18,609 bases of DNA, from positions 1-18,609 of IMG/VR virus record IMGVR_UViG_2534681878_000012. One strand, written 5' to 3'. This DNA comes from a virus. Taxonomy: Duplodnaviria; Heunggongvirae; Uroviricota; Caudoviricetes. Shown one piece after another: positions 1,056 to 14,844 of this stretch; the first letter of the stretch is position 1, and the number at the start of each line of letters is the position of its first letter. Under the pieces are notes generated by a model. It saw only the letters and a program-made list of their open reading frames with translations, was not told the DNA's origin and did no database searches. The position numbers and the translations under genes are program-made.

Positions 1056-1306
1056 TGCGGTAATGCAGCGGGAGATGGCAACAGATAATTTTTTGCTGTA
1101 GTCCAGTAAAAACCACCTTTAATTCCCAGACGTTTTCTGACTTTGTCATTTTTTGCTTCGCAATATAGCGCAAATTCTTCTTTATCAGTGCTCATTGATA
1201 AACCTCATTACAGATTTAAGGGTGAACAAATCCCTGCCATTGCTGGCATTTTTAATCCGTTGGTATGGTGTTAATATGGCTGGAGGGTTATCCAGCCGGT
1301 GTTTCG

Positions 1307-1477
1307 TTATTCAGGTACAGCGATTACTTTTTTTACCGGGAGGCATTCACCAGAAATTTTTTGCTCGTCTCTTGCCTGGAGGCAGGATTCTTTACTGGCA
1401 TAAATTCCGGTAATCACATTCTGTGATTCACCCGTTATAAGAAAAACCGTCATCATCAGTGCAAATGCTGAAGTCAT
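1307..1477 (-). CDS. ydfD: Small protein with hydrophobic N-terminus (56 aa), YdfD-like position downstream of dicB
   Basis: ORF below the track cutoff, found by manual translation: MTSAFALMMTVFLITGESQNVITGIYASKESCLQARDEQKISGECLPVKKVIAVPE. Its ATG overlaps the dicB stop as ATGA, indicating translational coupling. Confidence 0.45.
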   Translation of the reverse strand: MTSAFALMMTVFLITGESQNVITGIYASKESCLQARDEQKISGECLPVKKVIAVPE

Positions 1478-1662
1478 TGACGTTCTCCGAAAATACCAAG
1501 TTCAAGAAGAGCAATTCGGGAAAGTATGGAATTATCATTGAGCAGATAAGGCTCATATTTCCTCATGTTAATGGCATCTTCAGTAAACTCCCGGTTACTG
1601 AGCAGAACACCAATATCAAAACAACCTTCAGACGTATTAACGTTTGGTAATAACGTTTCCAT
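1474..1662 (-). CDS. dicB: DicB-like cell division inhibitor (62 aa)
   Basis: Internal start of track ORF 1474..1767: METLLPNVNTSEGCFDIGVLLSNREFTEDAINMRK... resembles remembered K-12 DicB. GAGG RBS 8 nt upstream; lies directly downstream of DicF as in Qin. Confidence 0.75.
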   Translation of the reverse strand: METLLPNVNTSEGCFDIGVLLSNREFTEDAINMRKYEPYLLNDNSILSRIALLELGIFGERQ

Positions 1663-1831
1663 TATCGCGTCCTCAACAATGAATTTTGTGATGCAGTGCC
1701 TGGTGCCTCCAGGTGACGTTAACCAGTTAACAATTAACGCCGGATACAGAGAATCCACCCATAACACTGTTTTTGGTTTTAACTGTTCCGCGTGCGCTTA
1801 GCCGCATTCACCGCATCACAAAATTCACTTT

Positions 1832-1889
1832 AAAAAGGGCGGCAGAGCAGCCACGGAGTAAAACTGATACCGCCAAACGTCACCAGAAA
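1832..1889 (-). ncRNA. dicF: DicF small regulatory RNA (ftsZ-targeting antisense sRNA of the dicB operon)
   Basis: Minus-strand sequence tttctggtgacgtttggcggtatcagttttactccgtggctgctctgccgcccttttt matches remembered DicF apart from one base, ends in a GC stem plus U-run, and sits between the ydfA-side genes and dicB. Ends are approximate. Confidence 0.8.
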
Positions 1890-2434
1890 ATTGATAACAG
1901 AGGGCGTTGCAGCGGGGTTGTCACTTAAGCGTATGGTCAACCTGACAACCCGGTGTCCTCAATGGGGAAGGAATAACCCCGCCATACTTACCGCCGCGCC
2001 ATTTCGCGGAGTGCCACAACCGGAAGCGCACGTTCGAAGAAATCTAACGACAAGCCTTCTAAGGGAAGAGCTTCGCCGTACGCTTTCGCGTTATGCACTG
2101 ACTTTTCAGGGAAATATCCTTTCAGTAAACTGTCAGTACCGGATTCTTATCCGTGTCCGGCGCACGACCACACGTGACAGCGTGTTGGTCTCCATTTTTA
2201 ACCCAGAACCTCAATGGAGGATAAAATGCCAAACAAAAAAGAAATCCGCTTATTGAAAAACAGATTGAATGCCTGGTAAATCAACTCAGGCAATCAGGGT
2301 TATTAAAAACTCATTCAGAGTTGAGGCTCACAGAATCAGCATTCGACGATAAATTAAATAATGTCCTTTATAATGGCATTATTGATTTTAATCGTTCTGT
2401 TGGTCGCCGCGGCCCTGCTGGTGTTTCCTTATAA

Positions 2435-3073
2435 TTACCAGTCAATCCAGAGTGGACCGTGTTCAGCGTAAATATAACTGTACACATCCAGATTATATTT
2501 GTGGTCTGTTAAGAACAGGCCGCAAATACATGCCGAAGCTTCCAGTGCAGCGGCTCTGTTACTGAATAACCATGTAGCAACATTCCAGCGTTTTTCTGCA
2601 TCCCAGTCTTTCTCAAGGCCTGATACCATGAAGAAACCGTTAGTGTTGCCATCAAATAATTCTGTTTCCAAATTTTTAAGCAATGCCTGATGGACTCTTG
2701 CCAGGTATTCCGCCGGAATTTCGCCACGAATTCTGATGAGATTGTCATAAACAAACATGTTCCCCGCATATGGCGATTTTTCTTTCTTGTTTTTTAAACC
2801 AGCATCATGAGCAAACTGATCAATTTCTTCTTCCGTTGGTTTCGTATTGATGTTTTGCGCTGTCGTTTCTGCAATTTTATTTGCCACACTCTCTGAGTCG
2901 TGTTTATTTATAGACGCACAGAAATACAATCCGGTAAACGCATCGCGCACATTACGAGCCATATTATCAGTGTCTTTTTTCGTTACCGATTCCAATTCAA
3001 GTTCGTTCAGACGATGACGAAGTGTGTGTGCTGCAATCTCCTGGATTGAAGGAGGTAAATCTTTAAATTCCAT
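2435..3073 (-). CDS. Hypothetical soluble protein (212 aa) in the leftward early operon; function unknown
   Basis: Track ORF 2435..3085; preferred start is the second ATG (MEFKDLPPSIQ...) with a GAGG RBS 6 nt upstream. No TM segments or recognisable motifs. Confidence 0.6.
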   Translation of the reverse strand: MEFKDLPPSIQEIAAHTLRHRLNELELESVTKKDTDNMARNVRDAFTGLYFCASINKHDSESVANKIAETTAQNINTKPTEEEIDQFAHDAGLKNKKEKSPYAGNMFVYDNLIRIRGEIPAEYLARVHQALLKNLETELFDGNTNGFFMVSGLEKDWDAEKRWNVATWLFSNRAAALEASACICGLFLTDHKYNLDVYSYIYAEHGPLWIDW

Positions 3074-3084
3074 CGTCAACCTCA

Positions 3085-3237
3085 TCAGTCAGTGTTTCTG
3101 GCTAACCAGCGACGCGCGCCAGCTTCAGTTTTAAACGTTTTGCTTCTGGTATACGTCATCGCGGTAAACGTGCCGTCCTGATTGGGAAACACGCCACATA
3201 CCAGAGATTCGTTGTTGCCAAGATCGATAGTATCCAT
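3085..3237 (-). CDS. ydfA: YdfA-like small protein (50 aa), first gene of the leftward operon
   Basis: Internal start of track ORF 3085..3393: MDTIDLGNNESLVCGVFPNQDGTFTAMTYTRSKTFKTEAGARRWLARNTD. GAGG RBS 5 nt upstream; its stop overlaps the first ATG of the next gene. Confidence 0.55.
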   Translation of the reverse strand: MDTIDLGNNESLVCGVFPNQDGTFTAMTYTRSKTFKTEAGARRWLARNTD

Positions 3238-3313
3238 GCTGACCTCATTTCCCCTTAACGCCGGGGTAGCGGAACTGTTTGCTGAGAACACCGTGCGGTG
3301 TCTTGATGGAGGT

Positions 3314-3364
3314 AATTTAGTTTTCTCATTATTTTTCGTCAAGGCTTTTTGATGAGAAAACTCA
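3314..3364 (-). promoter_or_regulatory. Leftward early promoter (pL-like, dicB-operon promoter) with two repressor operator palindromes
   Basis: Minus strand reads TTGACG (3337-3342), 17-nt spacer, TAAATT (3314-3319). Perfect palindrome TGAGAAAACTCA at 3353-3364 and an 11/12 copy at 3317-3328 overlapping the spacer and -10. Confidence 0.55.
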
Positions 3365-3429
3365 AGTATTGGCGCAAGATAAAGCCAATGCATTGAAATG
3401 TAAGGCTTTAAAATTTTGTGAAGGGATGA

Positions 3430-3837
3430 TTATTGATGCTTGTTGCGTTTGCGAGCCTCTAATAGCTCGGTGAACAGGCGATTAAAATTCTCAACGCGGG
3501 CGCGGAGTTCGCTGAGTTGTGCTTGTTGCTCTGATTTAGGAAGTGCGCGATACAAACGCAACATCTCTAACTCATCTTCCGATAAGTCTAAGGCACTATC
3601 GAGTGAAACAGGGGGAGTTGGTGTTTTGTCCTCGTCGCCAAACAGTATCCAGGTTGGTGAACATTGCAATACCTCGGCGAGGCGATGCAAATTTTGCCCG
3701 CGCGGGGCTGTATGGTCACTTTCCCATAATGAAATTGATGAGCCAGATACGCCAGCAGCTTTGCTTAAACCGTTTTGACTTAAGCCTACCTGCTTACGTC
3801 TTTCTCTAATGCGTTGACCTAAAGTTTTCTCGTTCAT
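3430..3837 (-). CDS. dicA: DicA-like HTH (XRE family) prophage repressor, 135 aa, no peptidase domain
   Basis: Internal start MNEKTLGQRIRERRKQVGLSQ... of track ORF 3430..3888; C-terminal ...LQCSPTWILFGDEDK.PTPPV... matches remembered K-12 DicA. Divergent from the cro-like gene. Confidence 0.8.
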   Translation of the reverse strand: MNEKTLGQRIRERRKQVGLSQNGLSKAAGVSGSSISLWESDHTAPRGQNLHRLAEVLQCSPTWILFGDEDKTPTPPVSLDSALDLSEDELEMLRLYRALPKSEQQAQLSELRARVENFNRLFTELLEARKRNKHQ

Positions 3838-3849
3838 ATTTAGATATCT

Positions 3850-3892
3850 TAATAACCCTTGACTTGAGATTCCTTGAGTGATTAGCATTGAG
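3850..3892 (+). promoter_or_regulatory. Rightward early promoter (pR-like) with overlapping operator palindrome
   Basis: TTGACT at 3850-3855, about 18 nt, TAGCAT at 3874-3879; perfect 14-bp palindrome TTGAGAAAACTCAA at 3879-3892 over the -10 and start region, same core as the two leftward sites. Confidence 0.55.
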
Positions 3893-3914
3893 AAAACTCA
3901 ATATTGGAGGTGCG

Positions 3915-4142
3915 ATGTTTAAATCAGACGTAATTAATTTTTACGGTACGAAAGCCAAAGTAGCGAAAGCTGCTGGCGTTGACCCATCTGCTGTTTCTCA
4001 ATGGCAAGAGCTGGTTCCTGAAGGTCGCGCGATGCGTCTACAGGAGGCATCTGGCGGGGGGCTTCAGTATGATCCCAAAGTTTATGACGAATATCGTAAG
4101 ACGAAGCGGGCGGGGCGGTTGAACAATGAAAATCACTCCTGA
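3915..4142 (+). CDS. dicC: Cro-like DNA-binding protein (DicC/YdaS-like), 75 aa
   Basis: Internal start MFKSDVINFYGTKAKVAKAAG... of track ORF 3888..4142 with GGAGG 8 nt upstream; C-terminal ...VPEGRAMRLQEASGGGLQYDPKVYDEYRKTKRAGRLNNENHS matches remembered DicC. Confidence 0.75.
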   Translation: MFKSDVINFYGTKAKVAKAAGVDPSAVSQWQELVPEGRAMRLQEASGGGLQYDPKVYDEYRKTKRAGRLNNENHS

Positions 4143-4677
4143 ACAGGCTCGTGAGGCTCTGGATGCCTGGATATGTCGACCAGGAATGACACAGGAGCAG
4201 GCGACGATATTAATCACTGAAGCATTCTGGGCTTTGAAAGAGCGCCCGAACATCGATGTTCAGCGTGTCACAGATGAAGGTGGCGCGGTTGATCAGCGAG
4301 CGCTTGGCGTTAATCGAGTGAAGATATTCGAACGCTGGAAGGCTATCGATACTAGGGATAAGCGTGAAAAGTTCACGGCGCTAGTGCCTGCAATTATGGA
4401 GGCTATCCGGATTAATGATTTCAGGTTGTATCGTGAAATTAGTGACGGAAAAAGCATCACGTACATGATCGCCGGGTTAAACAAAGAATATGGCGATGTG
4501 GTGGAGTCCGGGCTGCTTTTTGCGGATCCATCTGTTGTGGAACGTGAGACTGGCGAGCTTATAGAAAAAGCTATTGCTTTCAAGCATGCGTATCGTCAGC
4601 AGTATCAATATTACTTTGCAGATAAACAAATATCTGCCAGGGGTTCGTATGAGTATCGATGCACTACGATGGGCTAA
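4126..4677 (+). CDS. Hypothetical early protein (183 aa) in the cII/YdaT position after cro
   Basis: Track ORF; its start overlaps the 3' end of dicC in another frame. No confident family assignment. Confidence 0.5.
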   Translation: MKITPEQAREALDAWICRPGMTQEQATILITEAFWALKERPNIDVQRVTDEGGAVDQRALGVNRVKIFERWKAIDTRDKREKFTALVPAIMEAIRINDFRLYREISDGKSITYMIAGLNKEYGDVVESGLLFADPSVVERETGELIEKAIAFKHAYRQQYQYYFADKQISARGSYEYRCTTMG

Positions 4678-5230
4678 AAAGGTGAAAACCGGCAGTTCAT
4701 CCAGTAAGTCTGTATTGACCTGGCTTGCTGATATGTGCGGTGCCGATTTGTGTGCATACCCGTCTGTATCTGCACTGGCAGAAGTAACGGAACTGAACAA
4801 AAAGACTGTGCAGGACAGCTTACGACACCTGATGGAGATTGGGTTAATTGTTGATACCGGTGAGAGAAAAGGCAGAACAAAGCAAATTGTGGTGTACCGA
4901 CTTATCGGTGTAGAAGAAAGTGTTGCCGAGCCTGAATACACCCAAAAACGGGTGTCTTTAAAGGTGGGTAAAATTGGTGCTGTTAATAAAAACAGTACCG
5001 AAAACGGTTATGTTTCAGCACAAAAGAGCCCCAAAAACGGAACTCTTTGTTGCATGGAAAATAACCAAAGACACCCAAATTTTCCATCAAAGACACCCAA
5101 AAACGGATCACGGAACCCAAAGGAACCCAAAGATCTAAACCCCACACATAACGCACGCGAGAGTGCTCCGATCAGTGAGCAGGAAGTTTTGTCGTTACAG
5201 GCAGCCCCCATGTATTCCTGGATGGCCTGA
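4649..5230 (+). CDS. Replication initiator (lambda O-like) with N-terminal winged-helix domain and low-complexity linker
   Basis: Internal start MSIDALRWAKKVKTG... with AGGGG RBS 6 nt upstream (track ORF starts at 4574). ...VQDSLRHLMEIGLIVD... is typical of phage initiator N-terminal domains; the linker carries PKNG repeats coinciding with DNA iterons. Confidence 0.6.
   Translation: MSIDALRWAKKVKTGSSSSKSVLTWLADMCGADLCAYPSVSALAEVTELNKKTVQDSLRHLMEIGLIVDTGERKGRTKQIVVYRLIGVEESVAEPEYTQKRVSLKVGKIGAVNKNSTENGYVSAQKSPKNGTLCCMENNQRHPNFPSKTPKNGSRNPKEPKDLNPTHNARESAPISEQEVLSLQAAPMYSWMA
4997..5132. repeat. Iteron-like direct repeats (ACCCAAA(AACGG)), candidate origin of replication inside the O-like gene
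   Basis: Five CCCAAA cores (5030, 5074, 5095, 5115, 5125) plus two degenerate copies (4997, 5064), several extended to ACCCAAAAACGG, at about 10-44 bp spacing. Confidence 0.5.
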
Positions 5231-5253
5231 GCGAACCCATCGGAAAATTTCCG

Positions 5254-5688
5254 ATGACCGATAGCTGGTATCCGTCACGGGATTTTCGACGACGGGCTGC
5301 GTTGTGGGGGATGGCTTTGCCGGAGACAGAATTTACACCTGCTGAACTTACCGCATTCCGGGACTACTGGGCAGCGGAGGGGAAAGTGTTTACGCAGATT
5401 CAGTGGGAGCAGAAATTCGCCCGTCACGTAAATCACGTCAGGGCGCAGGTTAAACCAGTCAGCAAGGGGGTAAACCATGCAGCAGCACCAGGTGGCACCG
5501 CATCACGGGCAGTTCAGGAAATTCGGGCAGCACGTGAGCAGTGGGAACGTGAAAACGGATTTATCAGCGACGGAAACGGCCTGGAAGCTGTGGGAACTCA
5601 TGGGGGAGGTTTATTCGAACCGCTGGACCCAGAAGAACGGGGCCGCACCTTCGAAGCTCTGGATTGCACAGATTGGCGCGATGACTGA
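5254..5688 (+). CDS. DnaT-like replication-associated protein (144 aa as drawn)
   Basis: Track ORF; N-terminal half protein-like, C-terminal tail Gly-rich and overlapping the P-like gene out of frame; stop overlaps an in-frame P-like ATG as ATGACTGA. Confidence 0.45.
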   Translation: MTDSWYPSRDFRRRAALWGMALPETEFTPAELTAFRDYWAAEGKVFTQIQWEQKFARHVNHVRAQVKPVSKGVNHAAAPGGTASRAVQEIRAAREQWERENGFISDGNGLEAVGTHGGGLFEPLDPEERGRTFEALDCTDWRDD

Positions 5689-6142
5689 GCAGCAAATCCG
5701 GCAGGTCTGCCGCCAGTGCATGGACCGCTGCCGGGCGGGTGAAACATGGCCTCCGGACCTGGCTGAGTTTGTGGCGCTGATTTCGGAAAGCGGGGCCAAT
5801 CCATTTGGCCTGACGGTGGATGCTGTGATGGAGGAGTATCGCCGCTGGCGTAATGAGTCCTGGCGATATAACGGAAGCGACAAATATCCGTGGCCTCAGC
5901 CTGTGCTGTATCACATTTGCCTCGAGATGCGTTCAAAGGGGATTGAACGCCAGATGACCGAAGGGGAATTAAAACGGCTTGCAGAACGGCAGCTGACGAA
6001 ATGGGCAAAGCATGTTAGTAACGGCCTGAGCGTTCCGCCAGTACGGCGACAACTGGCGGCACCAAAACGCCCGTTGGGACCAACGCCAATTGAGTTGCTG
6101 AAACAGGAGTATGAACGCCGGAAAGCGGCTGGTTTTGTCTGA
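5477..6142 (+). CDS. Replication protein P-like (helicase loader homolog), 221 aa
   Basis: Track ORF with AGGGGG RBS about 6 nt upstream. ...ETWPPDLAEFVAL...YPWPQPVLYHICLEMR...TEGELKRLAERQL... resembles remembered lambda P. Start uncertain: 5477, 5600 or 5681. Confidence 0.55.
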   Translation: MQQHQVAPHHGQFRKFGQHVSSGNVKTDLSATETAWKLWELMGEVYSNRWTQKNGAAPSKLWIAQIGAMTEQQIRQVCRQCMDRCRAGETWPPDLAEFVALISESGANPFGLTVDAVMEEYRRWRNESWRYNGSDKYPWPQPVLYHICLEMRSKGIERQMTEGELKRLAERQLTKWAKHVSNGLSVPPVRRQLAAPKRPLGPTPIELLKQEYERRKAAGFV

Positions 6143-6176
6143 TTTGAGAAGTAATTTTTATCCGGAGGAAATTTTA

Positions 6177-6947
6177 ATGGGAACCGTATTGCATGCACTG
6201 AAAGCGATGGGTAAAGCCAATTCTGTTGAACTGGCGGCGCGGCTTGATATCAGCCGTGAAGAAGTTCTCAACGAACTGTGGGAACTCAAAAAAAATGGCG
6301 TTGTTGATAAAACGGGTCACACCTGGTTTCTGGCTGTCGAAGGCGAATCCGGGGTAACCGAAGGGCAGGCACTACAACCTGAAGCGCCGGATGTGGTAAC
6401 CGAAGAGGTCGCTCCAAAAGTTAGCGCTGACATGATGATTGAGTTTATCGCTCAGGAGGGGGCTAAAACCTGTGAAGAAATAGCGGGTAAGTTCGGTGTC
6501 AGTACTCGCAAGGTTGCTTCCACGCTGGCGGTGGTAACCGCAACGGGGCGGCTGGCACGCGTTAATCAGAACGGTAGATTTCGTTACTGCATGCCGGGCG
6601 ATAATTTACCAGCAGAGCCGAAAGCCGCGCTGGTAACGGAAAATGATGGTAAGGCCTTTCCTCAGCCAGCAGGTGCTGCGTTACCAGTCCGGGAAGCCGC
6701 AACACAGGAAGAAATTAAAACAGAAACTGTGGCGGACATTGTGCAGCCGTTGCCATCGTTTACCGAAACGCAAGCAGATGAGCTGATTTTTCCGTCCCTT
6801 CGCAGGGCAAACCTGGCGCTGCGCAGGGCGAAAAGTGATGTTCAGAAGTGGGAGCGAGTCTGCGCCGCGCTGCGGGAGCTGAACAAGCACCGGGATATTG
6901 TTCGACAGATTACTGATTCTTCCCGCCGTGTTGTATCGGAAAAGTGA
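6177..6947 (+). CDS. Hypothetical protein with two predicted winged-helix-like segments (DUF1627-like, from memory)
   Basis: Internal start MGTVLHALKAMGK... of track ORF 6111..6947 with GGAGG RBS; HTH-like stretches at N-terminus and mid-protein. Confidence 0.55.
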   Translation: MGTVLHALKAMGKANSVELAARLDISREEVLNELWELKKNGVVDKTGHTWFLAVEGESGVTEGQALQPEAPDVVTEEVAPKVSADMMIEFIAQEGAKTCEEIAGKFGVSTRKVASTLAVVTATGRLARVNQNGRFRYCMPGDNLPAEPKAALVTENDGKAFPQPAGAALPVREAATQEEIKTETVADIVQPLPSFTETQADELIFPSLRRANLALRRAKSDVQKWERVCAALRELNKHRDIVRQITDSSRRVVSEK

Positions 6948-6962
6948 TTGCCGGAGGCGCTT

Positions 6963-7355
6963 ATGGCAAAAGTATTTACACCAGAAGAGCGGGAAGAAGT
7001 GAAGGCGCGCATTGTGGAATTCGTGCGCCTGAGCGGACGAGAAACTTTTCGACAACTGGCAGATAAAACGGGTGTCAGTAAGACCGCTATTCGTTGTTTA
7101 TCTGGTGCGCTTGCGGCCAGTGGTGATGTCTGGCTCTCTGGTTGCGGGGTATTTCTATCAGAGCAGGCGTATCGCGTATGGCGCAAGACACCGGAGAAGG
7201 CTGCTGACCCGACACTGATTCGAAAGTTACCTGACGGAGAAATACGTCGTTACAACAGACGGCAGAACATAATTTGTCGTGAGTGCCGCCAGAGCGAAGT
7301 TATGCAGCGTGTGCTGGCGTTCTATCGGGGTAATTTTCAGGAGGTGATGGAGTGA
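6963..7355 (+). CDS. Hypothetical protein (130 aa) with HTH-like segment
   Basis: Internal start MAKVFTPEER... with GGAGG 6 nt upstream (track ORF 6948..7355); stop overlaps the next gene's GTG as GTGA. Confidence 0.55.
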   Translation: MAKVFTPEEREEVKARIVEFVRLSGRETFRQLADKTGVSKTAIRCLSGALAASGDVWLSGCGVFLSEQAYRVWRKTPEKAADPTLIRKLPDGEIRRYNRRQNIICRECRQSEVMQRVLAFYRGNFQEVME

Positions 7356-7648
7356 GGGTGAGAGTTTATATTGCCGGTCCAATGACGGGATATGAAAATT
7401 TCAACCGTGAGGCGTTTCACAAGGCGGAAGAGGAACTGAAACGGGAAGGGCATACCGTCTTAACTCCGGCAGTACTTCCGGACGGGCTGACACAGCCGCA
7501 CTACATGGATATTTGCATGGCAATGATTCGTTGTGTGGATGCGATTTACATGCTGAATGGCTGGCAGCGGTCAGCGGGCGCTAAGGCAGAGCTGGCACTG
7601 GCGGAGAAACTGGGGCATGCGGTGATTTATCAGGAGGTGGCTCGATGA
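7352..7648 (+). CDS. DUF4406 / nucleoside 2-deoxyribosyltransferase-like small protein (98 aa)
   Basis: GTG start; N-terminal VYIAGPMTGYENFNREAFHKAEEEL... is the Rossmann-like signature of the NDT/DNPH1-like fold; stop overlaps the next ATG as ATGA. Confidence 0.6.
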   Translation: MRVRVYIAGPMTGYENFNREAFHKAEEELKREGHTVLTPAVLPDGLTQPHYMDICMAMIRCVDAIYMLNGWQRSAGAKAELALAEKLGHAVIYQEVAR

Positions 7649-8020
7649 GAGAGGTTAACTATGAGGCGCTTCGTGAGGCAGCACAAAACTATCAGTCGAC
7701 GCTGGCGTGGTATCAGGCTACCCCGGACAGCCCAAATGCTGAACGGGATTGTGATGCGGCTCTTGCTGCGTTTAAGCGTCATATCCGTCATCGGGAAGCG
7801 GATATTATCGCTGGTAGCTGGTTTGCTGGATGCGCGGGAAGTTCAATTACCGACTCGCTACGACCTTCGATATGGACACCCGATAAATGCAGATGAGCGA
7901 CATGTCATGATACCTAAAGAAAATGGCAGTTGGCTTTACCTGATTGACCTAGAACACGCATTACGCGTCGCTGGCATTCGCATCAAAGGAGAGGAGCATG
8001 GAAATAAAACCAGAGGATGA
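7645..8020 (+). pseudogene. Ead/Ea22-like gene, copy A, apparently frameshifted and shortened
   Basis: MREVNYEALREAAQ... N-terminus (frame of 7645) shares the Ea22-like motif with copy B; conserved C-terminus ...AGIRIKGEEHGNKTR is in the +1 frame (ends 8020). Frame switch lies near 7810-7830; total span about 125 codons versus 239 in copy B. Confidence 0.5.
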
Positions 8021-8354
8021 GTTAAGCAATATCGTTTTATTTCCGGTAAAAGAGGATGACCCTCGTAATCAGGTTAATTTTCTTTATGAGCCATCGGAAA
8101 GACCATATTGTCATCACGCCTCTGTTCGGGTTGACGAAAAAGAGCGCCAGGTCCGCTGTAAAATCTGCGGTGCGGTTGTGGAGCCGTTTGACTGGATGCT
8201 CTCTGTGGCGAAAAGAGAAACCAGACTGGCAGATGATGTAAGGCTATTGCGCCAGGAGGAACAGGAAAGGCGGAAAAATATAGAAAAGTTAATTCAGATT
8301 GAACGTAACGCGAAAGCGCGGATACGCAGGGCGACAAAATCCAGAACTGAATAA
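7998..8354 (+). CDS. Hypothetical protein with putative zinc ribbon (CHH...CxxC), cassette copy A, 118 aa
   Basis: Track ORF; start lies inside the Ea22-like 3' end; about 95% identical to 9696..10052. Confidence 0.65.
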   Translation: MEIKPEDELSNIVLFPVKEDDPRNQVNFLYEPSERPYCHHASVRVDEKERQVRCKICGAVVEPFDWMLSVAKRETRLADDVRLLRQEEQERRKNIEKLIQIERNAKARIRRATKSRTE

Positions 8355-8404
8355 ATAAATTTAGCGCTGTAAATAAAATCTAATCCTGAACTGGAGGTAT
8401 ATTT

Positions 8405-8617
8405 ATGTTAAATACACAGAAAGCCATTAATGCGGAAAAATATAACGAGTGGGCAAGAAAATTCTCTGAGCAGATTTTTAAAATTACTGGCGATGAGAAT
8501 GCGGCAAAAAATGAATTAGAACCGTGGACACCTGAAGGAAACGCACCAAATTATTGCTGGTGGGAGGTTGATCCGGTTGATGTTGCAAATGAAGCCATGA
8601 GTTACCACAACGATTAA
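8405..8617 (+). CDS. Hypothetical small protein (70 aa), cassette copy A
   Basis: Track ORF with GGAGG RBS; about 88% identical to 10101..10313. Confidence 0.65.
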   Translation: MLNTQKAINAEKYNEWARKFSEQIFKITGDENAAKNELEPWTPEGNAPNYCWWEVDPVDVANEAMSYHND

Positions 8618-8621
8618 TGTC

Positions 8622-8643
8622 AGGAGGCCGCCCGAAAGGGCGG
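8622..8643 (+). promoter_or_regulatory. SD plus GC hairpin with GAAA loop (AGGAGG, CCGCCC-GAAA-GGGCGG) upstream of the 8651 ATG
   Basis: AGGAGG 8622-8627, 6-bp GC stem 8628-8643, ATG at 8651; no U-run, so not a classical terminator. Identical element at 10318-10339. Confidence 0.5.
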
Positions 8644-8650
8644 TAGTTAA

Positions 8651-8833
8651 ATGCGAAAGTTTAAAATAATTATTGAAACGGGAATAGCCGGTGGAGATTT
8701 CGAGGATGAATTCGAAGTGGATGATGATGCGACGCCTGATGAAATACATGACGAAGCAAAAGATATTTTCTTTAACTACTGCAATTATTCATATCACGAA
8801 ATAAAAGACGAAGAGGAAGAACAAAATGGCTGA
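8651..8833 (+). CDS. Small highly acidic protein (60 aa)
   Basis: Track ORF rich in D/E (DFEDEFEVDDDATPDEIHDE...KDEEEEQNG); stop overlaps the next ATG. Confidence 0.55.
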   Translation: MRKFKIIIETGIAGGDFEDEFEVDDDATPDEIHDEAKDIFFNYCNYSYHEIKDEEEEQNG

Positions 8834-9002
8834 TTTTGGTTCAACTAAATACAGCGTCAGTTTTGAAGAATGGCATGAACTGTTAATGGAATATGCAGAG
8901 TTACGTGGTGGCAGTGCTGCTGATGCTGAAGCATGGCGTGATGATTATGAAGCAGGAAAAAATCCGGTCGAAGCATATTGTGATGAGTGGGGCGATGAAT
9001 GA
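8826..9002 (+). CDS. Small acidic protein (58 aa), not in ORF track
   Basis: Manual translation MADFGSTKYSVSFEEWHELLMEYAELRGGSAADAEAWRDDYEAGKNPVEAYCDEWGDE; start overlaps the previous stop and its stop overlaps the Ea22-like B start as ATGA. Confidence 0.5.
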   Translation: MADFGSTKYSVSFEEWHELLMEYAELRGGSAADAEAWRDDYEAGKNPVEAYCDEWGDE

Positions 9003-9718
9003 GCGAGATTGACTATCAGGCGCTGCGTGAAGCAGCAGAGAAAGCAACTAAAGGATGCTACATCGTAGGGCATACATCGGGCAATCAGCATGGGAATATA
9101 ACAGGAGTTTTTGTTTGTCAAAAATGGAAAGGAGAGCCCGGTGGCGTAATTGCAGAATGTCATGTTAACTGCCTGGTTGAAACAGATGCTCAGGCTTACG
9201 CAAACGCTGAATTTATTGCTGCCTTTAATCCAAATGTTGCGCTGGCACTACTGGATGAACGGGAAAGAAACCAGCAATACATCAAATCACGCGACCAGGA
9301 GAACGAGGAGATTGCGCTTACGGAAGGGAAGCTGCTAATCGAAAACGGCCGGCTTGTTGCCGATACGCTACGCCACTTAGCTGATAACGAAATCGACTCT
9401 GATTATTTTGCTATCACCTCAACGAATGAGAACGGTACTGAAATTGATCATGAGATGGCTATTACCGATTACGCACTGCAAGCTGCCGGAACTGTAGACG
9501 AATTGGTTGCGGCGTTGGAATCCGCAGAGAAGCGCATTGCAGAACTGGAAGCACGGGAAATATCGCTCCCAGAACGTAGCAGCATGCTTCATCGAACAGA
9601 TTTTCACGATGATTACCAAACGGTAATGGCATACAAAGTTTCTGAAGTCATCGCTGCAATCCGCGCCGCTGGCATTCGCATCAAAGGAGAGGAGCATGGA
9701 AATAAAACCAGAAGATGA
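8999..9718 (+). CDS. Ead/Ea22-like family protein, copy B (239 aa, intact)
   Basis: N-terminal MSEIDYQALREAAEKA... and C-terminal ...AGIRIKGEEHGNKTRR typical of the family; track ORF. Confidence 0.7.
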   Translation: MSEIDYQALREAAEKATKGCYIVGHTSGNQHGNITGVFVCQKWKGEPGGVIAECHVNCLVETDAQAYANAEFIAAFNPNVALALLDERERNQQYIKSRDQENEEIALTEGKLLIENGRLVADTLRHLADNEIDSDYFAITSTNENGTEIDHEMAITDYALQAAGTVDELVAALESAEKRIAELEAREISLPERSSMLHRTDFHDDYQTVMAYKVSEVIAAIRAAGIRIKGEEHGNKTRR

Positions 9719-10052
9719 GTTAAGCAATATCGTTTTATTTCCGGTAAAAGAGGATGACCCACGTAATCAGGTTAATTTTCTCTATGAGCCATCGGAAAGA
9801 CCATATTGCCATCACGCCTCTGTCCGGGTTGACGAAAAAGAGCGTCAGGTCCGCTGTAAAATCTGCGGTGCAGTTGTGGAGCCATTTGACTGGATGCTCT
9901 CTGTGGCGAAAAGAGAAACCAGACTGGCAGATGATGTAAGGATCTTGCGCCAGGAGGAACGGGAAAGGCGGAGAAATATAGAAAAGCTAATTCAGATTGA
10001 GCGTAACGTGAAAGCGCGGATACGCAGGGTGACAAAATCCAGAACTGAATAA
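9696..10052 (+). CDS. Hypothetical protein with putative zinc ribbon, cassette copy B, 118 aa
   Basis: Paralog of 7998..8354; same overlap with the Ea22-like 3' end. Confidence 0.65.
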   Translation: MEIKPEDELSNIVLFPVKEDDPRNQVNFLYEPSERPYCHHASVRVDEKERQVRCKICGAVVEPFDWMLSVAKRETRLADDVRILRQEERERRRNIEKLIQIERNVKARIRRVTKSRTE

Positions 10053-10100
10053 TTAAATTTAGCTCTGTTAAAAATTTAATCCTTAACCGGAGGTATATCA

Positions 10101-10313
10101 ATGTCAAACGCACAGAAAGTTATTAACGCTGAAAAATATAACGAGTGGGTGAAAAAGTTCTCAGAGCAGATTTTTAAAATTACTGGCGACGAGAATGCGG
10201 CAAAAAATGAATTAGAGCCGTGGACACCTGAAGGTGTCGACCCAAATTATTGCTGGTGGGATGTTGATCCAGTTGATGCTGCAAATGAAGCTATGAGTTA
10301 TCACAACGATTAA
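10101..10313 (+). CDS. Hypothetical small protein (70 aa), cassette copy B
   Basis: Paralog of 8405..8617 with GGAGG RBS. Confidence 0.65.
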   Translation: MSNAQKVINAEKYNEWVKKFSEQIFKITGDENAAKNELEPWTPEGVDPNYCWWDVDPVDAANEAMSYHND

Positions 10314-10317
10314 TGTC

Positions 10318-10339
10318 AGGAGGCCGCCCGAAAGGGCGG
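10318..10339 (+). promoter_or_regulatory. Second copy of the SD plus GAAA-loop hairpin, followed by a 4-codon mini-ORF
   Basis: Same sequence as 8622-8643; ATG at 10342 opens MKSD-stop (10342..10356). Confidence 0.45.
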
Positions 10340-10513
10340 TAATGAAAAGTGACTGAATTAACCAAAGAGAAATTAATCGAAGAAGCCAAATTAAAAATAG
10401 CGATTGCGAAATGCTACCCCAATTCAGGGATGGCACGGGTATAGGGCGAGTTATTCAAAATTGCACTGGCATAGCTGGAAGCAGATCCAGTTAAACGAGT
10501 TAACTCAGATCAG

Positions 10514-11227
10514 ATGCACCGAGTCTGCTTAGAAGCTAATCGCTATTTAGATAAATATGACGCGATGGCGAAAGAGGTAAATAAGTTGCTTGGACGCATC
10601 GCCCCGCCAGCGCCAGTATTTAACGGCGAATACGGTGACGCATATCAGGGCGCTCGTGAAGACCTGTCCATCTGGAAACGGCGAGCGCTTGAAGCTGATG
10701 AGCACGTTCGGCGACTGGAGCAAATCAATGACCACATGGTGAAAGAGGCGCAGGGAGAATCACGCATGGGCGAGCCTGTAATACGTGAGCCAGCACCGGT
10801 AGTGCCTGAAGAAGCAACTCCGGAAAACGTAGAAATGCTCTCTGGCTATGTTTCAACGTACAAATTAACCGATAGCGAGCGCGATATTGCTGCCGAAATA
10901 TGGAACGCCTGCCGCGCCGCCATGCTTCAGGCTGGAAACTTTCGGGAAAATAAGGGTTCGTCAACCAATAATTTTCGGGAAATCTCGGAAACGTCAACCA
11001 ACTATCCGGTAACTCCGGATGGTTGGATAAGCTGTAGTGAGCGAATGCCGGATGATGGTCAGCACGTAATTATTTTATGTGATGGCGCATTCGTTCTTTA
11101 TGCGCAATATCGAGACGGTGAGTTTTTTGATGTAGTCCGTAATGGTGATGAATTTTTCGAAACACAGAGCCGCAATGTAACCGACTGGATGCCGCTACCA
11201 GAACCGCCGCAGGAGGTGCGCCAATGA
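10514..11227 (+). CDS. DUF551-domain protein (Ead/Ea22-associated C-terminal domain), 237 aa as drawn
   Basis: C-terminal ...DGWISCSERMPDDGQHVIILCDGAFVLYAQYRDGEFFDV...WMPLPEPP resembles DUF551. No good RBS at 10514; the upstream same-frame sequence is interrupted by two TAG codons (10442, 10472). Confidence 0.55.
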   Translation: MHRVCLEANRYLDKYDAMAKEVNKLLGRIAPPAPVFNGEYGDAYQGAREDLSIWKRRALEADEHVRRLEQINDHMVKEAQGESRMGEPVIREPAPVVPEEATPENVEMLSGYVSTYKLTDSERDIAAEIWNACRAAMLQAGNFRENKGSSTNNFREISETSTNYPVTPDGWISCSERMPDDGQHVIILCDGAFVLYAQYRDGEFFDVVRNGDEFFETQSRNVTDWMPLPEPPQEVRQ

Positions 11228-11307
11228 TCTGGCCTGAAGCCTTTGCAATTACAGGCGTTGCTATAGCTATTGATTTTTTAGTATATGTTATTTGTCGGTG
11301 GGGGTAA
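11224..11307 (+). CDS. Very small hydrophobic peptide (27 aa), not in track
   Basis: MIWPEAFAITGVAIAIDFLVYVICRWG; ATG overlaps the preceding TGA. Confidence 0.35.
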   Translation: MIWPEAFAITGVAIAIDFLVYVICRWG

Positions 11308-11342
11308 AAACGTTCGCCGGGATTCACACCAAAGGAGGGAAT

Positions 11343-11447
11343 ATGTCGGATGATATTTCACTGGCAATGGAAGGTGCGCTGGCTGTTATTGCTGTTGTGG
11401 GCGTTTACTGCCTGGTTGTGTTTTTGATGGATCGACTAGGGAACTGA
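11343..11447 (+). CDS. Small hydrophobic peptide (34 aa), not in track
   Basis: MSDDISLAMEGALAVIAVVGVYCLVVFLMDRLGN with AAGGAGGG RBS 5 nt upstream. Confidence 0.45.
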   Translation: MSDDISLAMEGALAVIAVVGVYCLVVFLMDRLGN

Positions 11448-11635
11448 ATTCATTACGATATGGGAATTCCCATATCGGGTAAAAACGGTTTGCGGTAAAG
11501 CGAGAGTTAAGTAGAATTGCTGCGGGTGCTTGAGGCTATCTGCCTCGGGCATGAACACCAACGGCAGATAGAGAAAAGCCCCAGTTAACATTACGCGTCC
11601 GGCAAGACGCTTAACATTAATCTGAGGCCATATCT

Positions 11636-11848
11636 ATGCTCTACACACGTAGGTTAGCCTCTTACGTGCCGAAAGGCAAGGAGAAGCAGGCTATGAAGCA
11701 GCAAAAGGCGATGCTAATCGCCCTGATCGTCATCTGTTTAACCGTCATAGTGACGGCACTGGTAACGAGGAAAGACCTCTGCGAGGTACGAATCCGAACC
11801 GGCCAGACGGAGGTCGCTGTCTTCACAGCTTACGAACCTGAGGAGTAA
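11636..11848 (+). CDS. hokD: Hok/Gef-family type I toxin (51-aa core from 11693) with in-frame Mok-like N-terminal extension
   Basis: Core MKQQKAMLIALIVICLTVIVTALVTRKDLCEVRIRTGQTEVAVFTAYEPEE matches remembered HokD/RelF. Structured leader (9-bp inverted repeat 11536-11544 / 11563-11571) and 3' stem-loop as in hok mRNAs. Confidence 0.8.
   Translation: MLYTRRLASYVPKGKEKQAMKQQKAMLIALIVICLTVIVTALVTRKDLCEVRIRTGQTEVAVFTAYEPEE
11644..11679 (-). promoter_or_regulatory. Putative Sok-like antisense RNA promoter opposite the mok/hok start
   Basis: Minus strand reads TTGCCT (11674-11679), 17 nt, TAACCT (11651-11656); transcription would run leftward across the 11636 start. Inferred by analogy with hok/sok. 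Confidence 0.35.
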
Positions 11849-11855
11849 GAGACCT

Positions 11856-11877
11856 GGCGAGGGAGAAATCCCTCGCC
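11856..11877 (+). other. Perfect 9-bp stem-loop with GAAA loop just after the hok stop
   Basis: GGCGAGGGA-GAAA-TCCCTCGCC with no U-run; a weaker hairpin plus T-rich tract follows at about 11919-11945. Confidence 0.5.
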
Positions 11878-11950
11878 ACCTCTGATGTGTCAGGCATCCT
11901 CAACGCACCCGCACTTAACCTGCTTCGGCGGGTTTTGTTGTATTAGAATA

Positions 11951-12268
11951 TCAGGATATTACCTGGATCCCGTTTTTCTCGACAACTGAAAGAAGCCGAA
12001 GAGCTGCACCTCCCGGGCGTTTCACTCCTCGTTCCCAGTCTGATATCAGGTTTTTACTGACGTTGAGGTATCTGGCAAAAACAGGTTGAGACAGATGCTC
12101 TCGTTCTCGCAGTGCACGGATCCTTTCCGGAGACATTACCGGCGCAGGCTGAAGACAAGTTTCATCGAATTCGCGCATAGTTTGTTTTGTGATTGCACCG
12201 ATATCATGGAGTGACTCCATCATTTCATGTACAGATGCAAGTGCATCACTGCGGTAATTTTTACTCAT
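11951..12268 (-). CDS. HTH (XRE-like) antitoxin, HigA-2-like architecture (C-terminal HTH), 105 aa
   Basis: Track ORF; C-terminal ...SQPVFARYLNVSKNLISDWERGVKRP... is HTH-like; lies downstream of and overlaps the toxin by 8 nt. Confidence 0.65.
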   Translation of the reverse strand: MSKNYRSDALASVHEMMESLHDIGAITKQTMREFDETCLQPAPVMSPERIRALREREHLSQPVFARYLNVSKNLISDWERGVKRPGGAALRLLSVVEKNGIQVIS

Positions 12269-12632
12269 TGGGTACCTCCGTGAACTGGCCTTGTTGAATC
12301 AATTGTGCCAGCTGTTCATCAGTAAGATTGAGGACATGGGGAGCGGCTTTTCGAAAAGCATTTTCCTCTATAGCAGTGATATTCTCTCGTTCATTCTTTG
12401 CGTATGCGTAGATGAAAAAGGCTTTTTCTGCAACGCGGTAAAAAATTATTGTCCGGTAACCGCCTGATTTTCCGCCACCACTTCGGGCTAATCTTTGTTT
12501 AATGACACCACTACCCAAATTTGCGGATATGATCCCCTTATCGGCCTGCTCCACGATTTTGCGCAGCGATTTATCGGAAATCCGATGTTTTCGGGCGAAA
12601 CGTTCAAACCAGGCGTTTTTGAAAATTCGCAT
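12261..12632 (-). CDS. RelE/ParE-superfamily toxin, HigB-2-like, 123 aa
   Basis: Motif ...RLARSGGGKSGGYRTIIFYRVAEKAFFIYAYAKNERENI... resembles remembered Vibrio HigB-2; toxin-first order is typical of HigBA modules. Confidence 0.65.
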   Translation of the reverse strand: MRIFKNAWFERFARKHRISDKSLRKIVEQADKGIISANLGSGVIKQRLARSGGGKSGGYRTIIFYRVAEKAFFIYAYAKNERENITAIEENAFRKAAPHVLNLTDEQLAQLIQQGQFTEVPNE

Positions 12633-12652
12633 ACCTGCCTCTGCATTTTATA

Positions 12653-12667
12653 TAACACATAGTGTTA
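12653..12667. promoter_or_regulatory. Inverted repeat TAACAC-ATA-GTGTTA upstream of the toxin gene, candidate autoregulatory operator
   Basis: Perfect 6-bp arms with 3-bp spacer, 21 bp upstream of the toxin start codon. Confidence 0.5.
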
Positions 12668-12855
12668 CACCATGTGGACTATGGAGGCAATCTTTATTTG
12701 AGAATGCTTGCTGATTTATCGGTGTTCAAAAAACAGACGTAATTCAGATTGTATAAACGGCAGACAGAAAAAGTCATTGTTCTTGCGCATAAAATCCTCA
12801 GATTTACTGAGTGAAATGCGTCTCTTTTCATGGTTATAGTCCGAGAGAAGCGATA

Positions 12856-13083
12856 ATGCATTTCATTTCCTTTACGTCAGGAGGTGTTGTGAAAATCCCA
12901 GCCAGTTTGATCCCGGGGTTTTATGAGAGCACGCGCCCGGTTGTTGTTTACAGAAACAGTGATGGTTCTTTTCAATGTGGTTTTGTTATGCGAAGTAATG
13001 AGGTTGTTGTAAGCCTTTCTCTTCTTTCTGAGGTAAGAGAGTTGGCAGGATTACCTGTTGATGATATTCAGAAGCAGCTATAA
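12856..13083 (+). CDS. Hypothetical small protein (rem-like position upstream of ydfU)
   Basis: Track ORF 12811..13083; possible starts GTG 12811, ATG 12856, or GTG 12889 with GGAGG RBS. Confidence 0.45.
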   Translation: MHFISFTSGGVVKIPASLIPGFYESTRPVVVYRNSDGSFQCGFVMRSNEVVVSLSLLSEVRELAGLPVDDIQKQL

Positions 13084-13118
13084 AATCAGGCTGACTTGAA
13101 CCGTCGCTGAGAAACACC

Positions 13119-13406
13119 GTGCCACCGGAGATCCCGATGGCGCACGATAGCAGATTGCACAATTCTGCCGCCCTTGCCAGTAGGCAAGGGCGGTGTTCGC
13201 ACGTATTTAAAACCGACTGGTTCCAGCATCCCCTATGCACTGAAGAACAGGCCGAATGGCTGATCCAGTGTTACCGCAGGCGTGGTTACGAGTTTCAGAA
13301 AGATCTCAGCTTCGATCGTCGTCACTGGATAATCTCCGCCAGGCTCCCTTATTCCGAACGCCCACCGCGTCCGTCCCGCACATTCCAGCAGCGCATCTGG
13401 AGGTAA
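13119..13406 (+). CDS. Hypothetical protein (95 aa)
   Basis: Track ORF ending just before the ydfU-like start; no recognisable motifs. Confidence 0.3.
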   Translation: MPPEIPMAHDSRLHNSAALASRQGRCSHVFKTDWFQHPLCTEEQAEWLIQCYRRRGYEFQKDLSFDRRHWIISARLPYSERPPRPSRTFQQRIWR

Positions 13407-13407
13407 C

Positions 13408-14457
13408 GTGCGGGTATTACTTCGACCTGTTCTGGTACCGGAACTCGGTCTGGTTATCGTTAAGCCAGGCCGTGAATCAATGTCAGTATTCCATAACGGC
13501 AGAATATTGGTGGAGCCGGAACCGAAAAACATGCGCGGTCTGCCGTCCGGAGTCGTTCCTGCCGTTCGCCAGCCGCTGGCAGAGGATAAAACATTACTGC
13601 CATTTTTCAGCGATGAGCGGGTTATTCGTGCAGCAGGTGGTGCAGGTGCACTGTCTGACTGGTTATTACGTCACGTGAAATCCTGCCAGTGGCCACACGG
13701 CGATTATCATCACAGCGAAACAGTCATTCACCGTTATGGTACCGGCGCGATGGTGTTGTGCTGGCACTGTGACAACCAGCTGCGCGACCAGACATCAGAA
13801 TCACTCGATCAACTTGCTCAGCAGAATCTGGTTGCTTGGATGATTGATGTCATCCGTCACGCAATAAGCGGTACGCAGGAGAGGGAGTTATCGCTGGCCG
13901 AATTATCCTGGTGGGCGGCCTGCAATCAGGTGGTGGATGCACTACCTGAGGCAGTAGCGCGTCGTTCGCTGGGATTACCAGCGGAAAAAATCCGCTCCGT
14001 ATACCGTGAAAGCGACATCATACCGGGAGAACAGACCGCCACCAGCATACTGAAGCAGCGCACAAAAAATATTGCGCTACCGTCTCACACCCACCAGCAA
14101 CAGAACCCACCACAGGAAAAGACGGTGGTCAGCATTGCCGTTGATCCGGAGTCTCCGGAATCCTTCATGAAACGACCTAAACGTCGCCGCTGGGTAAATG
14201 AGAAATACACACGCTGGGTAAAGACACAGCCGTGTGCGTGTTGTGGTAAGCCAGCGGACGATCCTCATCATCTGATTGGTCATGGTCAGGGCGGAATGGG
14301 AACAAAATCCCACGATATTTTCACGCTACCGTTGTGCCGGGAGCACCACAACGAACTTCATGCTGACCCGCTGGAGTTTGAGAAAAAGTACGGCTCCCAG
14401 GTTGAGTTAATTTTTCATTTTCTTGATCACGCCTTCGCAACAGGCGTGCTTGGGTAA
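13408..14457 (+). CDS. ydfU: YdfU-like (DUF968) prophage protein, 349 aa
   Basis: GTG start with GGAGG RBS; same length and Q-proximal position as remembered Qin YdfU; C-terminal Cys/His cluster ...QPCACCGKPADDPHHLIGHGQGG...LPLCREHHNELH. Confidence 0.65.
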   Translation: MRVLLRPVLVPELGLVIVKPGRESMSVFHNGRILVEPEPKNMRGLPSGVVPAVRQPLAEDKTLLPFFSDERVIRAAGGAGALSDWLLRHVKSCQWPHGDYHHSETVIHRYGTGAMVLCWHCDNQLRDQTSESLDQLAQQNLVAWMIDVIRHAISGTQERELSLAELSWWAACNQVVDALPEAVARRSLGLPAEKIRSVYRESDIIPGEQTATSILKQRTKNIALPSHTHQQQNPPQEKTVVSIAVDPESPESFMKRPKRRRWVNEKYTRWVKTQPCACCGKPADDPHHLIGHGQGGMGTKSHDIFTLPLCREHHNELHADPLEFEKKYGSQVELIFHFLDHAFATGVLG

Positions 14458-14469
14458 AAGAGGTGACTG

Positions 14470-14844
14470 ATGCCCATAGATTTGGTTTTACCTTACCCGC
14501 CAACGGTGAACACCTACTGGCGACGTCGTGGCAGCACATATTTTATCTCGGAGGAGGGAAAGCGTTATCGCCGGGCTGTGGCGCTTATTGTTCGCCAGCA
14601 GCGGCTGAAATTAATCCTGTCCGGAAGGCTGGCGATAAAGGTGATTGCAGAGCCACCGGATAAGCGTCGTCGCGACCTGGACAATATCCTGAAAGCACCG
14701 CTGGATGCGCTGACGCATGCGGGAGTGTTAATGGACGATGAGCAGTTTGATGAAATCAATATCGTTCGTGGTCAGCCAGTATCTGGTGGACGTCTGGGGG
14801 TGAAGATTTACCCCATAATGCTTGAAGGGCAGGTCAAAAAATGA
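14470..14844 (+). CDS. rusA: RusA Holliday junction resolvase
   Basis: ...LPYPPTVNTYW...PDKRRRDLDNILKAPLDALTHAGVLMDDEQ... matches remembered RusA catalytic region; AAGAGG RBS; lies just upstream of Q. Confidence 0.8.
   Translation: MPIDLVLPYPPTVNTYWRRRGSTYFISEEGKRYRRAVALIVRQQRLKLILSGRLAIKVIAEPPDKRRRDLDNILKAPLDALTHAGVLMDDEQFDEINIVRGQPVSGGRLGVKIYPIMLEGQVKK

Follow-up and report, generated by a model that had tools for sequence, protein, structure and literature searches.

What do two short, overlapping genes for strongly acidic proteins do in the early region of a lambdoid prophage? The question is raised by ORF-A and ORF-B (Table 1), which lie in the 18,609-nucleotide stretch of viral DNA analysed here (IMG/VR record IMGVR_UViG_2534681878_000012, positions 1 to 18,609; called the window in the following) and for which an earlier note, made from the letters of the DNA, had proposed a role as anti-restriction or anti-defence factors, possibly as DNA mimics. 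We therefore compiled their genomic setting, families, predicted folds and relatives and compared them with known acidic inhibitors.

Table 1. Features of the ORF-A/ORF-B module and its surroundings (positions refer to the window).
Feature	Position	Strand	Remarks
cI-like repressor	3430-3888	-	first in the gene order of the region
Upstream cassette	7998..8617	+	duplicated at 9696-10313
Zinc-ribbon-like protein, 118 aa	7998-8354	+	first gene of the upstream cassette
Acidic protein, 70 aa	8405-8617	+	second gene of the upstream cassette
Shine-Dalgarno (SD) sequence AGGAGG for ORF-A	8622..8627	+	5' of the hairpin; kept with the hairpin wherever the module occurs
GC hairpin CCGCCC-GAAA-GGGCGG	8628..8643	+	between SD and ORF-A start; left edge of the ORF-A/ORF-B module
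ORF-A	8651..8833	+	60 aa, member of DUF7167; predicted fold beta-beta-alpha-beta, acidic tail at the C-terminus
8-nt overlap ATGGCTGA	8826..8833	+	ORF-A stop/ORF-B start; read from sequence
ORF-B	8826..9002	+	58 aa, acidic; predicted bundle of three helices; no family in Pfam; matches PHROG 519 in its C-terminal half
4-nt overlap ATGA	8999..9002	+	ORF-B stop/Ea22-like start; read from sequence
Ead/Ea22-like gene, 239 aa	8999..9718	+	Pfam PF13935, E 8e-34; downstream neighbour, outside the module
Second SD and hairpin copy	10318..10339	+	after the duplicated cassette; no ORF-A/ORF-B follows

The window covers the immunity and early-right region of a lambdoid prophage. On the plus strand cro is followed by a YdaT/cII-like gene, O-like and lambda-P-like replication genes, DUF1627, DUF977, DUF4406 and the cassettes with ORF-A and ORF-B, and then by DUF551, Hok, a HigBA-like pair on the minus strand, DUF968, RusA and the antiterminator Q. 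With replication gene P on one side and antiterminator Q on the other, ORF-A and ORF-B belong to the nin region, and by the lambda paradigm we infer from this position that they would be transcribed as delayed-early genes from pR; a scan of positions 7300-11400 revealed neither promoter- or terminator-like signals above chance nor an Rfam match. The cassette upstream of ORF-A belongs to a direct duplication in two parts (7958-8257/9656-9955 at 96% identity and 8375-8656/10071-10352 at 88% identity). The segment with ORF-A and ORF-B is not part of it, and tblastn with both proteins gave only self-matches in the window, in agreement with the earlier note, which had regarded the two genes as unique to the first cassette junction. 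Ea22-like fragments surround both copies of the cassette (7958-8656 and 9656-10352), and its 118-aa and 70-aa proteins were assigned to phrog_1621 and phrog_4659, two PHROGs without an assigned function.

Coordinates and lengths of both ORFs were exactly as first described, and the calculation of pI and charge also bore out their strong acidity. ORF-A contains 20 Asp and Glu among its 60 residues (33%) and five Lys and Arg, resulting in a net charge of -15 and a pI of 4.05, and ORF-B has 16 acidic residues out of 58 (28%) and four basic ones, with a net charge of -12 and the same pI. They are the most acidic among 11 compared neighbouring plus-strand ORFs, eight of which are acidic too, and acidity is common among small phage proteins and hence non-specific evidence. 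The description as Asp/Glu runs holds for ORF-A (DFEDEFEVDDD and DEEEE) but is less apt for ORF-B, in which the acidic residues are dispersed. Start/stop overlaps connect ORF-A to ORF-B and ORF-B to the Ea22-like gene, as had been noted, so that the picture of small, strongly acidic and translationally chained accessory genes of a lambdoid prophage stands; following ORF-A, translation would pass via these overlaps to ORF-B and then to the Ea22-like gene.

Both ORFs are genuine genes. Of 5,426 complete E. coli genomes, 1,908 contain the 391-bp segment with the pair, 1,748 of them with both genes, which PGAP annotates as 'DUF7167 family protein' and 'hypothetical protein'. Phage ArgO145 (gp15 and gp14, 'hypothetical protein') and several Stx2a phages have the segment with 100% identity. 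Comparison of ORF-B with its copy on IncI2 plasmids gave a dN of 0.079 and a dS of 0.63 (dN/dS ~0.13), which points to clear purifying selection. As expected of decaying accessory genes, the module falls apart in cryptic prophages: premature stop codons are present in both genes of a Qin-like prophage (PhiR42_1, 4032-4393 of the stretch examined), and in a Rac-like prophage (442/2, 4032-4211 of the stretch examined) ORF-A has a premature stop and has lost its ATG, from which it follows that the genes are dispensable for the lysogen. ORF-A and ORF-B are independent families of 'moron-like' accessory genes that form a fixed pair in E. coli prophages only. ORF-B occurs without ORF-A on IncI2, IncT and IncU plasmids, in Ackermannviridae, in phages phiKDA1 and JL22 and in Enterobacter prophages, and Klebsiella, Enterococcus and Phapecoctavirus phages carry ORF-A alone.

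An SD-plus-hairpin element forms the left boundary of the module, and its right boundary is the start of whichever gene follows. Homology to other phages runs from position 8620 to just inside the Ea22-like gene, which defines a mobile unit of ~0.4 kb. The hairpin has a 6-bp GC stem and a GAAA loop, with the ATG of ORF-A 7 nt past the stem, and RNA folding of the surrounding 56 nt (8610-8665) gave -17.3 kcal/mol with a z of -2.7; as no T-run follows 3' of the hairpin it is not terminator-like. SD and hairpin are found together 5' of ORF-A in four prophages with differing upstream genes, including ArgO145 and the Rac-like and Qin-like prophages, and a C>U change in the Rac-like copy retains a G.U pair. 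ArgO145 carries the identical module in the pL exo-xis region, where two Ea22-like genes flank it and int is close by, and in the Rac-like and Qin-like prophages it is again found in the nin region. Folding of the hairpin would bring the SD to ~7 nt from the ATG of ORF-A, a workable distance, and SD-bridging hairpins of this type have been described for T4 genes 38 and 25. Since the second copy stands without ORF-A, the element may mark a recombination joint, either instead of or in addition to bridging the SD. In the interval from the second hairpin to the DUF551 gene (10342-10513) no ORF of at least 40 aa starts; a 4-codon mini-ORF, ATGAAAAGTGACTGA, lies directly 3' of the hairpin and the interval resembles a degraded N-terminal piece of an Ea22/DUF551-type gene.

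ORF-A belongs to Pfam DUF7167 (PF23768; 55.1 bits against a gathering cut-off of 24.4, E 7.9e-15), with residues 2-53 covering positions 1-60 of the 60-position profile, and to phrog_1997 (E 9e-31), and is thus a full member of a family to which no function has been assigned. Its AlphaFold2 model, computed from an alignment of 11 sequences (pLDDT 77.6), predicts strands at residues 2-9 and 16-23, a helix at 29-39, a strand at 46-51 and a short acidic C-terminal helix. The homologues are stand-alone proteins of ~56 aa from Klebsiella temperate phages, Guernseyvirinae, Enterococcus Herelleviridae, a Pseudomonas phage, Phapecoctavirus and E. coli phages. Among the aligned homologues I8-E9-T10, E22, I32, A36, F40 and C44 are invariant and the acidic C-terminal tail is present in all. 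A Foldseek search of the model against BFVD retrieved uncharacterised small phage proteins only (best E 0.03), and a profile search against the PDB gave nothing relevant, with the Gp2 entries 2LMC and 2WNM not among the hits. The genes next to ORF-A are inconsistent among the homologue loci; a link to an exonuclease was considered and rejected, as the neighbours in question belong to the unrelated families DUF2800/PD-(D/E)XK and DUF3850/ASCH. In Klebsiella phage VLCpiS11a (Guernseyvirinae) the homologue lies between the nucleotide-modification-associated protein Nmad5 and a DUF2800/PD-(D/E)XK nuclease (2046-4525 of the stretch examined), a possible DNA-modification neighbourhood.

ORF-B falls into PHROG 519 (E 1e-21, 78.8 bits), with a match that spans no more than positions 76-137 of the 143 in the profile, the same part that is matched by the scanned fusion proteins and stand-alone homologues. 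A Pfam scan of 31 family members gave only noise and no NCBIfam model matched, so that the ORF-B domain is an uncurated family. AlphaFold2 predicts a confident three-helix bundle (31 sequences, pLDDT 88) with helices at residues 13-26, 34-42 and 47-55. W16, L20, A24, W37, Y41, G44 and G56 are invariant, F13, H17, D33, D40, K45, A50, D53 and E54 nearly so, and in the model most of the conserved residues, including Trp, Tyr and Phe, belong to the predicted core. A conserved acidic and aromatic patch in the model is located on helices 2-3 and the C-terminus. On helix 1 the acidic positions are variable, and the i/i+4 stripe of acidic residues seen there in ORF-B is not conserved among the Ackermannviridae homologues.

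An exhaustive HMM search yielded 140 representatives of the ORF-B family (50% identity clusters), ~97 of them stand-alone proteins of 45-75 aa with a median pI of 4.34. ORF-B aligns end to end with proteins of 50-78 aa such as Cba120 orf183, WP_000753050 from IncI2 and ORFs of Rts1-like and IncU plasmids, with an identity of 84.5% to the IncI2 copy and of 52-58% to the Ackermannviridae copies. The 200 phage records are mainly Ackermannviridae (e.g. Cba120), with a KP34-like podovirus and a P1-like phage, JL22, where the homologue is located immediately 5' of an adenine methyltransferase gene. The 561 plasmid records, 516 of them conjugative, are mostly IncI2, and ~420 carry an 80-90% identical copy (84.5% among the matches listed). 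In the two IncI2 plasmids examined the homologue is part of an operon downstream of repA, with genes for a CaiF/GrlA regulator, DUF1187 (RcbA-like), the ORF-B homologue, SPFH and NfeD (6348-8662 of the stretch examined in one of them), and the junction between DUF1187 and the ORF-B homologue shows the same overlap as ORF-A and ORF-B here, ATGGCTGA. A placement of this operon in the IncI2 'leading region' was not established, as it is ~15 kb from the relaxase/MobC end. In Enterobacter prophages the homologue follows an Ea22-like gene, beside xis/int or in the nin region. N- or C-terminal copies of the domain are also present in NADAR, GemA, ParB-like, RIIB-like and other proteins, for example in a 218-aa protein of phage EP_H11 that combines NADAR (Pfam E 7e-27) with a C-terminal ORF-B-type domain (2506-3162 of the stretch examined). 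NADAR enzymes reverse DarT-type DNA ADP-ribosylation, and the EP_H11 protein may be a targeting fusion. What looks like an overlap of ORF-B with a DUF551 protein in phiSTEC1575-Stx2k is no fusion, as only 85 bp of the ORF-B 3' end are left there, upstream of the DUF551 gene.

Published work offered little guidance. DUF7167 was neither mentioned nor given a function in the literature searched, queries for DUF7167, the protein accession numbers, lygF and IncI2 with DUF1187 returned nothing useful, and no experimental characterisation of DUF7167 or PHROG 519 was found there, the only label being a putative anti-CRISPR (Acr) flag set on phrog_519 by a machine-learning tool (PMC9409062). The nearest functional analogues are TifA, T7 Gp2 and the DNA mimics T7 Ocr, ArdA and T7 Gp5.9, and the mimics are, like ORF-A and ORF-B, small, early, very acidic and encoded by phages and conjugative plasmids. 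The strong net negative charge of a DNA mimic is present in both proteins, and their acidic content may be compared with the 29% quoted for Ocr and the 21% of TifA, an inhibitor that is not a mimic (PMC11322646). However, ORF-A and ORF-B are much shorter than Ocr, ArdA and Gp5.9 and show no similarity to them in sequence or fold, and no conserved phosphate-like acidic array could be made out in them; a sequence search of both proteins against the PDB gave nothing relevant. TifA from Enterococcus phage phi47, a small acidic protein that is not strictly a DNA mimic, binds directly to type IV restriction enzymes and so inhibits them (PMC11322646), which is the same kind of mechanism as the one we propose below. 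As a relative of ORF-A or ORF-B it was rejected, since it has two domains, one of them SH3-like (PMC11322646), and no homology was detected.

We favour, with a probability of about 0.4, that ORF-A and ORF-B bind stoichiometrically to a conserved and basic protein, of the host or of a defence system, that handles nucleic acids. Each product is a single compact acidic domain, too small for an enzyme, and its binding would block or redirect a positively charged host or defence protein, with true DNA mimicry as one version of this mechanism. Binding is favoured over catalysis by the small, featureless products and the acidity throughout the families, and Pfam and NCBIfam scans gave no match to a catalytic family for these single domains of 58-60 aa. 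The attachment of the ORF-B domain to NADAR, GemA, ParB-like and RIIB-like proteins also speaks for a binder, whereas the inconsistent neighbours of ORF-A and the stop codons in cryptic prophages speak against it. A more specific form of the binding model appears rather doubtful to us: ORF-B would be a portable acidic three-helix domain directed against a single conserved hub of the host or of its defences, which it would neutralise by itself or, when joined to NADAR, GemA, ParB-like or RIIB-like proteins, as their targeting module. Its users would be Ackermannviridae, prophages of the lambdoid and P1-like types, a KP34-like podovirus and IncI2, IncT and IncU conjugative plasmids (including the IncI2 backbone), with ORF-A as a second, independent inhibitor common to phages of Gram-negative and Gram-positive hosts.

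If one or both proteins were DNA mimics in the manner of Ocr, ArdA or Gp5.9, they would sit where restriction or other defence enzymes bind DNA and so relieve the restriction of unmodified phage or plasmid DNA. The share of acidic residues, the acidity retained across both families and the location in accessory hot-spots of temperate and virulent phages, for ORF-B also on conjugative plasmids, are consistent with this, as are the methyltransferase next to the ORF-B homologue of JL22, the NADAR fusion in EP_H11 and, for anti-defence in general, the machine-learning flag. We nevertheless consider it improbable for either protein, as searches of the PDB and by fold detected no similarity to solved DNA mimics, Acr or anti-restriction proteins, and the variable acidic positions of ORF-B helix 1 and a three-helix core of 45 residues, rather short for a B-DNA-like array unless it forms oligomers, also argue against mimicry. 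The IncI2 operon, in its genes and its distance from the relaxase/MobC end, differs from the classical leading-region set of ardA, psiB and ssb, and the GemA, ParB-like and RIIB-like fusions suggest a generic interaction module. Neither homology to a known Acr nor an adjacent gene for an aca-type HTH regulator was found, and PADLOC, whose library covers defence systems and not anti-defence proteins, gave no match. The 42% identity of ORF-A between E. coli prophages and Enterococcus phages suggests that the target is very conserved and not a defence system confined to certain strains. About equally likely, and hence an equally tentative option, is that the two proteins modulate the phage life cycle or host physiology like the exo-xis and nin proteins Orf63, Orf61, Orf60a, Ea8.5 and Ea22, acting on the lysis-lysogeny decision or on host transcription, for example through Gp2-like binding of ORF-A to RNA polymerase. 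The identical module in the exo-xis region of ArgO145, where it is flanked by Ea22-like genes, and the ORF-B homologues beside Ea22-like genes in Enterobacter prophages fit such a role, and exo-xis genes affect lysogenisation and induction (PMC3824215, PMC7093339). Orf63, Orf61, Orf60a and Ea8.5 of lambda and Stx phages share with ORF-A and ORF-B this neighbourhood in ArgO145, early expression and a similar size (60-90 aa), and their function is mostly unknown, but they belong to different families and in our window the pair is in the nin region instead; the section headings and abstract of PMC8614690 do not name ORF-A or ORF-B among the exo-xis proteins. Modulation is disfavoured by homologues in strictly virulent phages and on plasmids, which have no lysis-lysogeny decision to make, and the comparison of ORF-A with T7 Gp2 by hhalign gave a probability of 0.2% over 10 aligned columns and thus no sign of homology. 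Gp2 binds the beta' jaw of RNA polymerase via arginines of strand 3, which are unmatched in ORF-A, with H49 and K52 there.

Less probable still is that ORF-B is a portable adaptor or oligomerisation domain whose stand-alone form would serve as decoy or regulator of proteins with the same domain and not as inhibitor of a host target. Its occurrence at either end of partners such as NADAR, GemA, ParB-like and RIIB-like proteins and the conservation of mostly core aromatics could be explained in this way, but most family representatives are stand-alone proteins and tblastn found no other protein with an ORF-B domain encoded in the window. Two short overlapping genes with Hok and HigBA-like modules nearby might also suggest a toxin-antitoxin couple, or ORFs that are spurious. 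Both ideas are effectively refuted: strong conservation and purifying selection exclude spurious ORFs, and both products are acidic, each gene stands alone in many genomes and no toxin or antitoxin family was matched in Pfam, NCBIfam or PADLOC.

If either protein is an inhibitor, it would be among the most widespread in Enterobacteria, with the pair in about one third of complete E. coli genomes and ORF-B on hundreds of IncI2 plasmids, and with such a prevalence it could bear on the host range in phage therapy and on plasmid spread. The kind of gene is already known, namely small acidic accessory proteins of mobile elements, and the present gain is a clean account of two ordinary accessory genes of the 'hypothetical' kind with their predicted folds, module boundaries and distribution, and the recognition of ORF-B as a domain family without a curated model. 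What deserves to be retained is how widespread the pair is, the occurrence of ORF-B in virulent phages and on IncI2 plasmids, its fusions and the module edge formed by SD and hairpin.

Some further observations concern the rest of the window. Its ends (1-2400 and 15700-18609) are without convincing long ORFs, and ARAGORN predicted no tRNA genes. By eye the right end, which follows Q, is rich in G+C, and it does not have the tRNA-stx arrangement that is typical of Stx phages. In the part of the nin region that separates DUF551 from DUF968 we assigned by eye a Hok/Gef-type toxin ORF (11636-11848, plus strand) and a HigB/HigA-like toxin-antitoxin pair (11951-12632, minus strand), the antitoxin of which has only weak HTH matches in PADLOC.
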